Virus record (IMG/VR): IMGVR_UViG_2711768011_000003
Reading direction: 5' to 3' (one strand)
Length of the DNA: 10,052 nucleotides
From: a virus
Lineage: Duplodnaviria > Heunggongvirae > Uroviricota > Caudoviricetes
Position numbers and translations under genes: made by a program. The notes beneath the pieces were generated by a model. The model made no database searches. It was not told the origin of the DNA and worked only from the letters and a program-made list of their open reading frames with translations. Shown here piece by piece: positions 5,319 to 7,463 of this stretch. The number at the start of each line of letters is the position of its first letter. Within the stretch, counting starts at the first letter, position 1.

Positions 5319-5856
5319 NNNNNNNNNNNNNNNNNNNNNNNNNNNNNNNNNNNNNNNNNNNNNNNNNNNNNNNNNNNNNNNNNNNNNNNNNNNNNNNNNN
5401 NNNNNNNNNNNNNNNNNNNNNNNNNNNNNNNNNNNNNNNNNNNNNNNNNNNNNNNNNNNNNNNNNNNNNNNNNNNNNNNNNNNNNNNNNNNNNNNNNNNN
5501 NNNNNNNNNNNNNNNNNNNNNNNNNNNNNNNNNNNNNNNNNNNNNNNNNNNNNNNNNNNNNNNNNNNNNNNNNNNNNNNNNNNNNNNNNNNNNNNNNNNN
5601 NNNNNNNNNNNNNNNNNNNNNNNNNNNNNNNNNNNNNNNNNNNNNNNNNNNNNNNNNNNNNNNNNNNNNNNNNNNNNNNNNNNNNNNNNNNNNNNNNNNN
5701 NNNNNNNNNNNNNNNNNNNNNNNNNNNNNNNNNNNNNNNNNNNNNNNNNNNNNNNNNNNNNNNNNNNNNNNNNNNNNNNNNNNNNNNNNNNNNNNNNNNN
5801 NNNNNNNNNNNNNNNNNNNNNNNNNNNNNNNNNNNNNNNNNNNNNNNNNNNNNNNN
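5319..5856. other. Assembly gap (run of 538 N)
   Basis: Contiguous N characters. The ORF-track entries crossing it are poly-X artefacts. Confidence 0.99.
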
Positions 5857-5919
5857 GAGTCAGACATTCCCACACAATATTGTGTCAGTGCAAATAACAA
5901 CCTTCGTCTCAAATCTCGC

Positions 5920-5994
5920 TGGAGCGGGCAGCGGGAATCGAACCCGCATCATCAGCTTGGAAGGCTGAGGTAATAGCCATTATACGATGCCCGC
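5920..5994 (-). tRNA. tRNA-Gly (anticodon UCC)
   Basis: Minus-strand sequence GCGGGCATCGTATAATGGCTATTACCTCAGCCTTCCAAGCTGATGATGCGGGTTCGATTCCCGCTGCCCGCTCCA folds as a cloverleaf by hand: 7-bp acceptor stem, anticodon loop CTTCCAA, T-loop TTCGATT, 4-nt variable loop, U73, encoded CCA. Appears identical or near-identical to E. coli glyT from memory. Confidence 0.85.
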
Positions 5995-5997
5995 ATA

Positions 5998-6073
5998 TGG
6001 TGCCGACTACCGGAATCGAACTGGTGACCTACTGATTACAAGTCAGTTGCTCTGCCTGCTGAGCTAAGTCGGC
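5998..6073 (-). tRNA. tRNA-Thr (anticodon UGU)
   Basis: GCCGACTTAGCTCAGCAGGCAGAGCAACTGACTTGTAATCAGTAGGTCACCAGTTCGATTCCGGTAGTCGGCACCA. Acceptor stem GCCGACT/AGTCGGC, anticodon loop CTTGTAA, A73, CCA. Closely resembles E. coli thrU with D-loop differences. Confidence 0.85.
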
Positions 6074-6075
6074 GC

Positions 6076-6152
6076 TGGCCCACCACCGAGGACTCGAACC
6101 TCGCACCGTCAACTTAGAAGGTTGATGCTCTATCCGGATGAGCTAGTGGTGG
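6076..6152 (-). tRNA. tRNA-Arg (anticodon UCU)
   Basis: CCACCACTAGCTCATCCGGATAGAGCATCAACCTTCTAAGTTGACGGTGCGAGGTTCGAGTCCTCGGTGGTGGGCCA. Perfect 7-bp acceptor stem with an unusual C1:G72 pair, D-stem GCTC/GAGC, anticodon loop CTTCTAA, T-loop TTCGAGT, CCA. Confidence 0.8.
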
Positions 6153-6153
6153 T

Positions 6154-6230
6154 TGGTGGCCCTTGCTGGACTTGAACCAGCGACCTGGCGATTATGAGTC
6201 GCTCGCTCTGACCAACTGAGCTAAAGGGCC
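6154..6230 (-). tRNA. tRNA with CAU anticodon; probably tRNA-Ile2 (lysidine), which software may call tRNA-Met
   Basis: GGCCCTTTAGCTCAGTTGGTCAGAGCGAGCGACTCATAATCGCCAGGTCGCTGGTTCAAGTCCAGCAAGGGCCACCA. Acceptor stem GGCCCTT/AAGGGCC, anticodon loop CTCATAA, A73, CCA. Strong resemblance to E. coli ileX/ileY-type tRNA as I recall it. Confidence 0.8.
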
Positions 6231-6239
6231 GGAGGCAGA

Positions 6240-6268
6240 ATAATAACCATATGTCATCACATCTGCAA
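6240..6268 (-). promoter_or_regulatory. Candidate sigma70 promoter for the tRNA array
   Basis: Minus strand: TTGCAG (-35, 6263-6268), a 17-nt spacer, TATTAT (-10, 6240-6245), then 9 nt to the first tRNA 5' end at 6230. Confidence 0.35.
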
Positions 6269-6318
6269 ACTCATCTGACCACCAGCACGTTTAACGTCCT
6301 GTGCCGTTTTTCAGGTAT

Positions 6319-6344
6319 AAAAAAACCCGCTCATCGGCGGGTTT
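6319..6344 (-). terminator. Rho-independent terminator downstream of the ORF6N-domain gene
   Basis: Minus strand: AAACCCGC-CGATGA-GCGGGTTT followed by a T-run of 7 in total. It lies about 75 nt after the stop at 6420-6422. Confidence 0.5.
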
Positions 6345-6419
6345 AAGCTGTGTGGCGTAGTAACCACTCTTAACAGGATATTCAACTTTTTACGATCGTA
6401 AAGTTTTCGGAAAAAATTT

Positions 6420-6983
6420 TTAAAACCGCATCAACCGCTCCACCAGTTGCTCTTTACGGGCAACGATCCACCCGTGTTGCTCCAGATAAAATTTAAACCG
6501 TTCCAGAGTACATACCATCGCATCGGCGGGTACCTTTTCCGTGAACTCAACCTGACCGTGTTTATCGAAGTGGCTCAGTAATGCGCATCCATCATTTTCG
6601 ATAGATGTGTTTTGTGCCGCTGGTGGCTGTTTCTGGTTGAAATAACAGTCTTCCAGTTTTTCGAACACTTCCCACGCCTGATCGGTTTCGAGCATTTTGG
6701 CGTGACGGGCTGCGCCACGTTCTGTCCAGAGGATGAGGGAGCGAACGTTACGGGCAATTTTCACAGAAACTCTTAAAGAGTTTTCGTTCTTCAACTCTCG
6801 TAACGCATCACCTTCTATCAGGAAAAAATGTTTACCTTCTATAAACCGTTCTTTGTTTCGATTGAAATTGTTTGTCAAACGCTGGCGCTCTGTTCCGTAC
6901 AAATCAGCCAGCAGCTCTGTTGTCATGACAGGAAGATGGTTATGCGTAAGTGACGGGAGTTTTTCAATAGACGTGCGATTCAT
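6420..6983 (-). CDS. ORF6N-domain protein (antirepressor-like DNA-binding family); cargo gene between Q and the lysis cassette
   Basis: The N-terminal part (TTELLADLYGTERQRLTNNFNRNKERFIEGKHFFLIEGDALRELK) fits the ORF6N-domain pattern as I remember it; the C-terminal half is unassigned. Start taken as the ATG at 6981-6983 with an AAGGA RBS 7 nt upstream; the ATG at 6987-6989 is an alternative. The ORF-track extension to 7181 starts with GTG and looks non-coding. Confidence 0.6.
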   Translation of the reverse strand: MNRTSIEKLPSLTHNHLPVMTTELLADLYGTERQRLTNNFNRNKERFIEGKHFFLIEGDALRELKNENSLRVSVKIARNVRSLILWTERGAARHAKMLETDQAWEVFEKLEDCYFNQKQPPAAQNTSIENDGCALLSHFDKHGQVEFTEKVPADAMVCTLERFKFYLEQHGWIVARKEQLVERLMRF

Positions 6984-7189
6984 AGACATGTCCTTTCGAA
7001 TATTTTGATTTACCCCTTTTGAGAGGGTGACCGGGCGCTCAAAACCGTCGAAAGTCGGCGGGCGTATTTCCATTGCTGGTATTGTATTAGCCGCACACCC
7101 GGTCATAAACCAAGAATTCTGGACACAAAAAAACCACATGGCTATCGGGTGTGGATACCGCTTTCGAGGTGTTTTGAGCACCGCGGGGA

Positions 7190-7218
7190 AATGTAAACTG
7201 CAAACCTGAAACTGTCAA
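7190..7218 (-). promoter_or_regulatory. Candidate sigma70 promoter upstream of the ORF6N-domain gene
   Basis: Minus strand: consensus TTGACA (7213-7218), a 17-nt spacer, TACATT (7190-7195). This would give a leader of about 200 nt. Confidence 0.25.
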
Positions 7219-7342
7219 CACCGTCAGGTTCCAATCATCGGGTGGTGAGACGCACAGGGTTGGAACTACCGGGAAACCGACCGGCGAGCTTTTCAGCTCC
7301 CCCATGCGCCCCACCATAATTCAGATGTGCGCGTGCATACGA

Positions 7343-7368
7343 CAATAAAAAACACGCTCGCGGCGTGT
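7343..7368 (-). terminator. tR'-like intrinsic terminator downstream of the late promoter
   Basis: Minus strand: ACACGC-CGCGA-GCGTGT followed by TTTTTTATT. It lies about 80 nt downstream of the predicted PR' start site. Confidence 0.5.
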
Positions 7369-7429
7369 GTCTGTCGCGGTCTCTATCCGGGGTTCCAATC
7401 CCGACGCCAGATTTTGCTGGCGCGTGAGG

Positions 7430-7459
7430 AATATAGCCCCGGACAATGTGTCTGGTCAA
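7430..7459 (-). promoter_or_regulatory. PR'-like late promoter (with presumptive qut region) immediately after Q
   Basis: Minus strand: TTGACC (-35, 7454-7459), an 18-nt spacer, TATATT (-10, 7430-7435). It begins 5 nt after the Q stop at 7464-7466, as in lambdoid late control regions. Confidence 0.45.
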
Positions 7460-7463
7460 GCAC

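Follow-up and report, generated by a model that had tools for sequence, protein, structure and literature searches.

We examine the interval between the Q-type late antiterminator gene and the holin gene in a 10,052-nt stretch of DNA from the virus record IMGVR_UViG_2711768011_000003 (hereafter the window). The window is a segment of a lambdoid prophage, coordinates are positions within it unless another locus is named with them, and every gene described here lies on its minus strand. The interval contains a gene for a 187-amino-acid (aa) ORF6N-domain protein, preceded by a 480-nt leader between the Q stop codon and the gene's start. We consider it probable that the interval is an antirepressor module similar to immI of P1 and P7, located directly after Q and the counterpart of antQ-isrK-orf45-anrP in Gifsy-1, whose protein is gated post-transcriptionally by two tandem antisense-RNA units. 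The gene and its boundaries are as follows.

7464-7871, minus strand: Q-type late antiterminator gene, 135 aa (Pfam Phage_antitermQ PF06530, E 2.7e-52; phrog_79)
6420-6983, minus strand: AnrP-family antirepressor-like gene, 187 aa (Pfam ORF6N; phrog_2379; 49% identity to Gifsy-1 STM2616/AnrP)
6344-6323 (hairpin; tail to ~6319), minus strand: intrinsic terminator after the ORF6N gene, 8-bp stem and T-run (terminator scan)

An earlier reading of the letters of this DNA (the original prediction) had described an ORF6N gene at 6420-6983, between Q and the holin gene and bracketed by terminators. This framework stands: the Pfam match and the Q family match are clear, and hairpins with T-runs are found on both sides of the gene, at 7368-7352 and 6344-6323. 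What the interval does is a different matter, and the protein, its position and its leader each bear on it.

The protein's ORF6N domain (KilA-N-like, Pfam PF10543) occupies residues 13-97 (E 8.8e-21), and the family phrog_2379, named 'anti-repressor', covers residues 2-187 with profile positions 3-187 of 187 (E 4.4e-85). The identity to Gifsy-1 STM2616/AnrP extends over 184 aa (E 6e-58). A database search with the protein returned 4661 homologues. The best 120 of these are 184-230 aa long, mostly 184-198, and wherever a source is named among them it is E. coli, Shigella, Salmonella, Citrobacter or E. albertii. A 106-member cluster carrying the name of Shigella sonnei shares 99% identity with our protein, and copies in that species are 99-100% identical. 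The start codon is likely the ATG at 6983, not 6989, because homologues begin with MN(R/S)TS and a Shine-Dalgarno (SD) sequence, AAAGGA (6996-6991), lies 7 nt upstream. A search of genome contigs with the protein as query mostly found distant Firmicutes ORF6N genes and was uninformative for synteny.

The Gifsy-1 locus was dissected by Hershko-Shalev et al. 2016 (PMC4825925). There, the isrK promoter produces a 77-nt small RNA (sRNA), some transcripts pass its terminator to form an orf45/anrP mRNA of about 910 nt, and IsrK acts in trans to open the site at which ribosomes bind orf45, whose AUGs are located at +107 and at +119 to +121 and whose stop codon overlaps the anrP start (PMC4825925). 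The (over)expression of AnrP raises the level of antQ-operon mRNA and induces Gifsy-1, and a processed species, STnc1160, has been reported (PMC4825925). The Gifsy-1 record shows, one after another, Q (STM2617), c4-a1b1/isrK, C4, the 187-aa STM2616, isrJ, tRNA-Arg, gogA and holin. STM2616 is therefore found where the published map puts AnrP, between isrK/orf45 and isrJ and directly downstream of the Q gene. We call the protein in the window a putative antirepressor by analogy with this Gifsy-1 phenotype and from the company of its RNA unit.

Forty-three homologues align end to end with the protein. Across their alignment, residues 81-115 are nearly invariant and the C-terminal domain is well conserved; the center of the ORF6N domain (residues ~30-80, window 6740-6890) is mosaic and hypervariable, which suggests a specificity surface swapped through recombination. 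The C-terminal domain has about 60 aa and is rare, matched by 43 cluster representatives among 1.84 billion proteins at a cut-off of E <= 0.001. We read it as fused to ORF6N, to Rha-like or to other N-termini, or as standing alone at 82-88 aa.

The term antirepressor could also be an annotation habit, with the protein instead acting as a sequence-specific DNA-binding regulator, through its KilA-N-like ORF6N domain, at phage or host promoters. The family name is indeed based on N-terminal domain homology, and a mosaic center within an otherwise nearly invariant protein is the pattern expected of a specificity-determining surface. However, the gene carries RNA control of the P1 ant kind, and the genes found downstream of sRNA-Xcc1 elements, described below, include those with P22_AR_N, P22_AR_C and ANT domains. 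The prophage induction caused by AnrP expression is likewise an antirepressor phenotype, though a direct activator could do the same. We consider a plain DNA-binding regulator unlikely.

The position of the gene is regular. It directly follows a Q-type gene in E. coli EC12, VL40 and GN06667, and two abundant homologues, P0026 with 644 index blocks in E. coli and P0118 with 234 in Salmonella, have the same placement in all the places that we read. Of 80 related viral contigs, 69 extend far enough upstream for the gene's neighbor to be judged. A Q-type gene ends just upstream in 57 of these 69, and it belongs to one of three mutually unrelated families (46 of the PF06530 type, 8 DUF1133 and 3 Q82-like). 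In the remaining contigs, the gene follows an integrase gene, an AlpA-like gene or another antirepressor-type gene. Both isrK and C4 are located upstream of the gene in 64 of the 69. In four viral contigs (L074, L080, L081 and L115), the IsrK-C4-ORF6N cassette comes after an integrase or AlpA-like gene and not after Q; satellite-like elements may be its carriers there.

The original prediction had seen in this interval the most likely place for a strain-specific or functionally unusual gene. On that view, the gene would be strain-specific cargo, a moron acquired in the slot between Q and holin and unrelated to core phage regulation. Certain traits of a moron are present. The gene has its own terminator (6344-6319) and a promoter, P2, whose position is conserved; the RNA-plus-gene cassette is mobile, being found near int, in the nin region and after AlpA-like genes; and the exact allele is rare, present with at least 80% DNA coverage in only 8 of 5426 complete E. 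coli genomes, while 1858 genomes match partly. Sporadic presence among relatives, which is also expected of a moron, is not what we see. The cargo reading fails because the gene is directly after Q in most of the related contigs, behind three unrelated Q families, and it takes the same place in Gifsy-1 and in E. coli and Salmonella prophages generally. By the original prediction's own terms, such occupancy in most related phages refutes the cargo view. Moreover, the match to the phage family phrog_2379 is full-length with thousands of homologues, the Gifsy-1 homologue feeds back on its own Q operon and on induction, and the supposed tR' terminator upstream is part of the IsrK RNA. We consider strain-specific cargo very improbable. 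The ORF6N gene is a regular occupant of the region between Q and holin; the truly variable slot, as judged from the relatives' sequences, lies between the gene's terminator and the holin gene. Where the original prediction expected an unusual gene, we find a known kind of module, an IsrK/C4-gated AnrP-type antirepressor after Q, and largely known biology.

An Rfam scan over 5858-8000 returned four minus-strand matches between the Q stop codon and the gene's start codon. The first part of the leader, unit 1, contains the following elements.

7430-7459, minus strand: P_isrK, promoter-like site TTGACC-18-TATATT that abuts the Q stop codon (consensus scan; conservation in 16 loci)
7384-7436, minus strand: c4-a1b1 motif, upstream copies of the C4 target, overlapping IsrK (Rfam RF03163, 50.1 bits against a gathering score of 46.7)
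7347-7423, minus strand: IsrK-type sRNA (Rfam RF01394, 77.5 bits against a gathering score of 50, model positions 1-77, E 2.4e-16)
7368-7352 (hairpin; T-run to ~7343), minus strand: IsrK intrinsic terminator (terminator scan)
7238-7321, minus strand: C4-type antisense RNA of unit 1 (Rfam RF01695, 71 bits against a gathering score of 45, full length)
7228-7235, minus strand: b2 target of unit 1, AUUGGAAC, just 3' of C4 (exact complement of C4 b')
7087-7317, minus strand: equivalent of Gifsy-1 orf45, 76 codons (open reading frame (ORF) list; AUG positions; comparison with type A loci)

The IsrK-type RNA belongs to its family by a full-model score above the gathering score, and it has its own promoter and intrinsic terminator. 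The position of P_isrK corresponds to that of the isrK promoter tested in Gifsy-1 (PMC4825925), and its -35, its -10 and its spacer TCCGGGGCTATATT are conserved across 16 diverse loci, including loci without Q. The spacer (7437-7450; alignment A4 columns 23-36) is (nearly) invariant in these loci, above the level of its surroundings, and may be a protein-binding site or a piece of a longer RNA. Counted from the 5' end of IsrK (7423), the two AUGs of the orf45-like ORF (7317 and 7305) fall exactly at +107 and +119.

We find that three short words in unit 1 match each other and change together. The loop of IsrK hairpin 2 is AUUGGAAC (b1, 7399-7392), the specificity word of C4 is GUUCCAAC (b', 7266-7259) and the copy just 3' of C4 is b2. 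Across the 16 diverse loci, b1, b' and b2 co-vary as four types: GGAAC/GTTCC/GGAAC in the window, GGCGT/ACGCC/GGCGT in Gifsy-1, a third type AGCCT/AGGCT/AGCCT and a fourth type CGAAC/GTTCG/CGAAC. This covariation is the support for pairing in unit 1; whole-RNA duplex energies, of C4 with IsrK and of C4 with the downstream sequence, are no better than those of shuffled controls. The b2 word (7235-7228) sits within the orf45-like ORF, off any SD sequence. As for LexA control, known from antirepressors such as Gifsy GfoA and from 186 Tum, we rejected the only CTG-N10-CAG site (7227-7212), which matches 11 of 20 consensus positions and whose last CAG type A loci lack.

The original prediction took the IsrK terminator for tR' and the leader for a plain PR'-tR' unit, overlooking three Rfam-level RNA elements that are its real regulatory content; the terminator belongs to the IsrK sRNA of a mobile IsrK-C4 module. 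In a refined form of that view, P_isrK and IsrK are the phage's PR'-tR' unit, IsrK is the counterpart of lambda 6S RNA, the ORF6N gene is the first Q-dependent late gene and the RNA motifs are secondary. A lambda-type arrangement is present, with a promoter (7459-7430) after Q and a terminator (7368-7343). Whichever of the three Q families precedes it, P_isrK lies against the Q stop codon; the readable sequence contains no other strong promoter-terminator pair between Q and the lysis genes; and in Gifsy-1 a share of the transcripts passes the IsrK terminator and continues into anrP. However, the promoter-IsrK-C4 unit is not particular to one Q: it follows PF06530-type, DUF1133 and Q82-like genes, and it also occurs without Q, namely after integrase genes, in the nin region and, in Stx2a phages, close to int. 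Each known Q protein is specific for promoter-proximal sites of its own. In addition, the 538-nt run of N downstream could conceal another promoter. The position of P_isrK would make it a Q-dependent late promoter, while its three Q families and Q-less loci say that this is not necessarily so; it may double as a late promoter. The PR'-tR' account is compatible with RNA gating rather than exclusive of it, and we hold it to be possible, though clearly the less probable account of the leader.

The second part of the leader, unit 2, contains the following elements.

7190-7218, minus strand: P2, promoter of unit 2 and of the ORF6N gene, TTGACA-17-TACATT (consensus scan, 10/12; positional conservation)
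7127-7178, minus strand: segment with the upstream targets a1, CUCAAAAC (7178-7171), and b1, UCGAAAG (7167-7161) (exact complements of a' and b')
7021-7104, minus strand: sRNA-Xcc1-family RNA of unit 2 (Rfam RF02221, 77.4 bits against a gathering score of 53, model positions 1-87)
7017-7023, minus strand: downstream target a2 of unit 2, CUCAAAA, in a small hairpin loop
7002-7009, minus strand: second a2-like word, AUCAAAAU
6993-6999, minus strand: b2 of unit 2, UCGAAAG (overlaps the SD sequence AAAGGA, 6996-6991)

As the original prediction had suspected, a promoter of the gene's own is very probable at 7218-7190, judging by conservation of place. Fourteen unique, otherwise unrelated upstream contexts share a -35 resembling TTGAC and a -10 resembling TAnnnT that stop 7-9 nt short of the conserved GGUGCUCAAAAC. 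P2 in the window is one of them, with a predicted start near 7183; in phage Nil2, an annotated promoter is located at the equivalent place. By consensus scanning, the numbers of promoter-like sites (4, compared to 2.9 +/- 1.5 in shuffled sequence) and terminator-like sites (3, compared to 2.4 +/- 1.7) do not exceed those of shuffled sequence, and the sites named here are credible because comparative and Rfam evidence backs them.

The sRNA-Xcc1 element is flanked by its own complements. Its loop word b', CUUUCGA (7054-7048), and the word a', GUUUUGAG (7045-7038), are exactly complementary to a1/b1 upstream and are also complementary to a2/b2 downstream. The duplex of the unit-2 RNA with the downstream target has a free energy of -30.2 kcal/mol, compared to -18.2 +/- 3.4 kcal/mol with shuffled targets. 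The upstream word, the loop and the downstream word co-vary three ways in three enterobacterial types (UCGAAAG/CUUUCGA, the window type; UCAGUAG/CUACUGA, the EC12 type; and CAAGUAG/CUACUUG). Between a1/b1 and the sRNA-Xcc1 element there is a terminator-like hairpin (7154-7134), followed by a U7 run (to 7127), and the arms of this hairpin also co-vary (CCACA/UGUGG and CCGC/GCGG). The segment 7127-7178 therefore looks like an IsrK-like short RNA, and unit 2 appears to repeat the plan of IsrK, terminator and C4. In unit 2, the downstream target covers the ribosome-binding site (b2, 6999-6993, on the SD sequence), and its RNA is not a member of RF01695.

We then asked how general this arrangement is. 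Searching viral contigs with a pattern built on the conserved first hairpin collected 88 unique sRNA-Xcc1 instances; cross-locus pairings served as controls, and the downstream search range was 108 nt. The hairpin-2 loop has a perfect complement of at least 6 nt downstream in 71 of the 88 instances (11.6% in controls) and upstream in 78 (9.9% in controls); a downstream complement of at least 7 nt is found in 55 (2.3% in controls). The downstream targets overlap an SD-like motif in 65 of 71 cases and end a median of 9 nt (interquartile range 8-10) before the next start codon. Forty-one distinct target words occur. The genes that follow encode ORF6N, Bro-N (with P22_AR_C), Rha, KilA-N, P22_AR_N and ANT/KilAC proteins, which make up the whole antirepressor-type 'Bro network'.

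Across these instances, the loop changes together with the ribosome-binding site of the antirepressor-type gene that follows, so sRNA-Xcc1 would work like C4; the likeness appears to be architectural and functional, and not one of RF01695 membership. With slightly less assurance than for the module as a whole, though still as the better bet, we propose that sRNA-Xcc1 is a second lineage of C4-type immunity RNAs. Its cassette of promoter, decoy targets with terminator, antisense RNA and ribosome-binding-site targets would gate the translation of the 'Bro network' across proteobacterial phages by means of dozens of interchangeable words, and in the window it would be stacked behind IsrK-C4 as a second, independent lock. 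This re-reading of sRNA-Xcc1 as a C4-type regulator that masks ribosome-binding sites is the only part of our analysis that may hold some novelty. Chen et al. in 2011 reportedly found sRNA-Xcc1 as an integron-borne sRNA of Xanthomonas. It has since been treated as a virulence-linked, trans-acting sRNA (PMC12189769, PMC7313666), and one paper notes its position upstream of an ORF6N gene in APSE phages.

The family loci fall into two types. Type A, as in Gifsy-1 (48 of 64 loci), has about 60 nt between C4 and the start of the gene. In type B (16 of 64), about 200 extra nt carry the sRNA-Xcc1 element, and 11 of the 16 are identical to the window, which by its sequence is a type B variant. The overlap coupling to orf45 is gone in the window because the orf45-like ORF runs for 76 codons to its stop at 7087, 104 nt before the ATG at 6983. 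There is no overlapping stop/start (AUGA), the junction is replaced by unit 2, and the ORF6N gene has its own SD sequence. Consequently, what is new in this variant appears to be that unit 2, with its own promoter, replaces the translational coupling of Gifsy-1. Type B may have arisen by deletion from a Nil2-like tandem, because Nil2 has the arrangement isrK-C4-antA, annotated promoter, sRNA-Xcc1-antB.

We now combine these elements into a model of the locus. In unit 1, P_isrK would make a short IsrK RNA that ends at the terminator at 7368-7343. Transcripts that read through would carry the C4-type RNA, whose specificity word would pair with b1 in IsrK and with the downstream b2. In unit 2, the P2 transcript would contain the a1/b1 targets, the IsrK-like terminator, the sRNA-Xcc1-type RNA and the a2/b2 targets. 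Once processed RNA has accumulated, it would pair with a2/b2, of which b2 is on the SD sequence of the ORF6N gene, and would block translation; its pairing with a1/b1, in cis or in trans, would relieve the block. The AnrP-family protein would then inactivate a prophage repressor, or otherwise turn on early or Q transcription, and thereby promote or reinforce induction.

Several observations weigh against this model. The prophage immunity region is outside the window, so that a cognate repressor cannot be named from it, and the prophage is possibly defective. The AnrP effect in Gifsy-1 was measured as an mRNA increase and phage release, not as repressor binding (PMC4825925). The C4 model RF01695 has no match at 7104-7021 at E <= 1, and for unit 1 neither duplex energies nor the 16-locus alignment located a convincing 'a' pairing. 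Finally, the C-terminal domains are the most divergent stretch of the alignment between the window protein and AnrP; we found no known relative of the C-terminal fold, Foldseek with a model of the full protein returned nothing significant, and no mechanism can be read from structure.

The same parts could also serve a different purpose, as a superinfection or defense device in which resident antisense RNAs shut off the antirepressor genes that related phages bring in, while the protein mainly cross-induces other prophages. C4 gives immunity specificity in the P1/P7 paradigm, being reportedly the determinant of that specificity in the work of Citron and Schuster in 1990. The many discrete words, 4 in unit 1 and 41 in unit 2, are as expected for discrimination between phages. 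Antirepressors of Gifsy and Fels prophages act across prophages (PMC3121763), and PADLOC gives candidate matches to PDC-S05, although these are weak (E 1e-7) and do not extend beyond the ORF6N domain. A defense function extends the gated-antirepressor model rather than contradicting it, and as the module's principal role we find it doubtful.

Downstream of the gene, the variable slot and the rest of the window contain the following features.

5920-6230, minus strand: array of four tRNAs, CAT, Arg-TCT, Thr-TGT and Gly-TCC (ARAGORN; Rfam tRNA)
5319-5856: run of 538 N
5139-5318, minus strand: 3' part of a class II holin gene, with which the lysis cassette starts (translated ORF matches that of the VL40 holin)
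4642-5139, minus strand: lysozyme gene
4181-4657, minus strand: Rz gene
3788-4138, minus strand: HNH gene
7840-8211, minus strand: RusA gene
8465-9997, minus strand: DnaB-type helicase gene

Small terminase, large terminase and portal genes complete the layout. A 60-aa ORF at 4243-4425, in another frame within the Rz gene, has a lipoprotein-signal-like start, as expected for an embedded Rz1 spanin.

The four tRNAs, which the original prediction had placed here ahead of the gap, are the sole identifiable cargo in the variable slot of the window. In relatives, the slot contains a 62-65-aa ORF, an AraC-type gene, up to four tRNAs, a SASA esterase gene, a methyltransferase gene, gogA or insertion sequence (IS) elements. 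E. coli VL40 carries a similar array, 98.5% identical over 5858-6330. ARAGORN calls the CAT tRNA Met, and its VL40 counterpart is annotated as tRNA-Ile in RefSeq; it is probably Ile2. With CAT as Ile2, the anticodons CAT, TCT, TGT and TCC would read AUA, AGA, ACA and GGA, which are rare codons in E. coli.

Small RNAs are also found in this slot. The terminator at 6344-6319 occupies the place held in Gifsy-1 by isrJ, which scores 100 bits there between anrP and the tRNA and has no Rfam match in the window. Salmonella type B loci have isrI downstream of the gene (L035/L036, 5986-6082). Four E. coli relatives (L003, L027, L028 and L031) have STnc100 matches downstream of the ORF6N gene, near the tRNAs, and two of them (L003 and L027) also have AsxR ('anti-stx2') matches near the tRNAs; in these four, the slot beyond the gene's terminator appears to be rich in small RNAs.

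The run of N is present and is one base shorter than the original prediction had it. The 5' end of the holin gene is lost inside it, and the run would hide about 12 first holin codons and roughly 500 nt of sequence between genes. At this place the closest relative, VL40, whose flanks are 98.5-99% identical, has 655 bp, with no annotated gene and no Rfam match. The gap length is thus either an estimate or masks a deletion or other difference.

These results have consequences for annotation. In many prophages of E. coli, Shigella and Salmonella, an ORF6N gene between Q and holin should be annotated as an AnrP-type antirepressor module, and the leader of such genes as RNA genes, not as PR'-tR'. 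An antirepressor right after Q could feed back positively on induction, which matters for how Stx-type and other lambdoid prophages are released. For the sRNA-Xcc1 family, the data re-assign its function, and the 41 matched pairs of antisense and ribosome-binding-site words are a natural library that is directly testable by reporter fusions.

The closest known system is Gifsy-1. Both loci have a Q gene, a promoter abutting its stop codon, IsrK with its terminator, C4 over a small ORF and a 187-aa ORF6N protein, and in both the gene is followed by a terminator, tRNA(s) and lysis genes. In Gifsy-1, the orf45 stop and the anrP start overlap (AUGA) and anrP is translated only by way of its coupling to orf45, whereas here about 200 nt with a second promoter and an sRNA-Xcc1 unit intervene. 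The Q gene is Q82-like there and of the PF06530 type here, isrJ follows the gene there and has no match here, and the unit-1 word is GGCGT there and GGAAC here.

The immI region of P1 and P7, reportedly described by Citron and Schuster in 1990 (cited in PMC7313666 and PMC2864571) as c4 antisense RNA, icd and ant, provides the general plan. In P1, RNase P processes C4 from its precursor. An antisense RNA of about 80 nt lies on the same transcript as its target in both systems, with its cutting here presumed by analogy; target copies are located upstream (a1 b1) and downstream (a2 b2), with b2 on the ribosome-binding site (in the window, that of unit 2); and the controlled gene is an antirepressor, a putative one here, with discrete specificity types. 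In contrast, the window has two tandem units, of which unit 2 is outside the C4 model, its protein joins ORF6N to a novel C-terminal domain rather than having the P1 Ant architecture, and the module follows Q in a lambdoid prophage instead of being part of a P1-type plasmid prophage. With respect to sRNA-Xcc1, the literature describes a trans-acting RNA, whereas the element here and most phage instances are flanked by their own complementary targets, one of which is on the SD sequence of an antirepressor-type gene.

The PR'-qut-tR' region of lambda, with its 6S RNA, shares a consensus-like promoter right after Q, a short terminated transcript and late genes downstream. The unit here differs because it is common to three unrelated Q families, occurs without Q and holds antisense-RNA targets. 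Positions remote from Q, close to int or within the nin region, likewise carry the IsrK-C4 module, and the antirepressors of Stx phages (Nil2 antA/antB, VT2-Sakai ant and Phi24B Ant; PMC3064807) share with the window an IsrK-C4 leader that is 83-95% identical and an ORF6N N-terminal domain. The sRNA-Xcc1 unit is shared by Nil2 antB, for which a promoter is annotated as well. The Stx phage genes differ in being located in the nin region or near int, before Q, and in having other C-terminal domains (~225 aa; P22 Ant-like in Phi24B).

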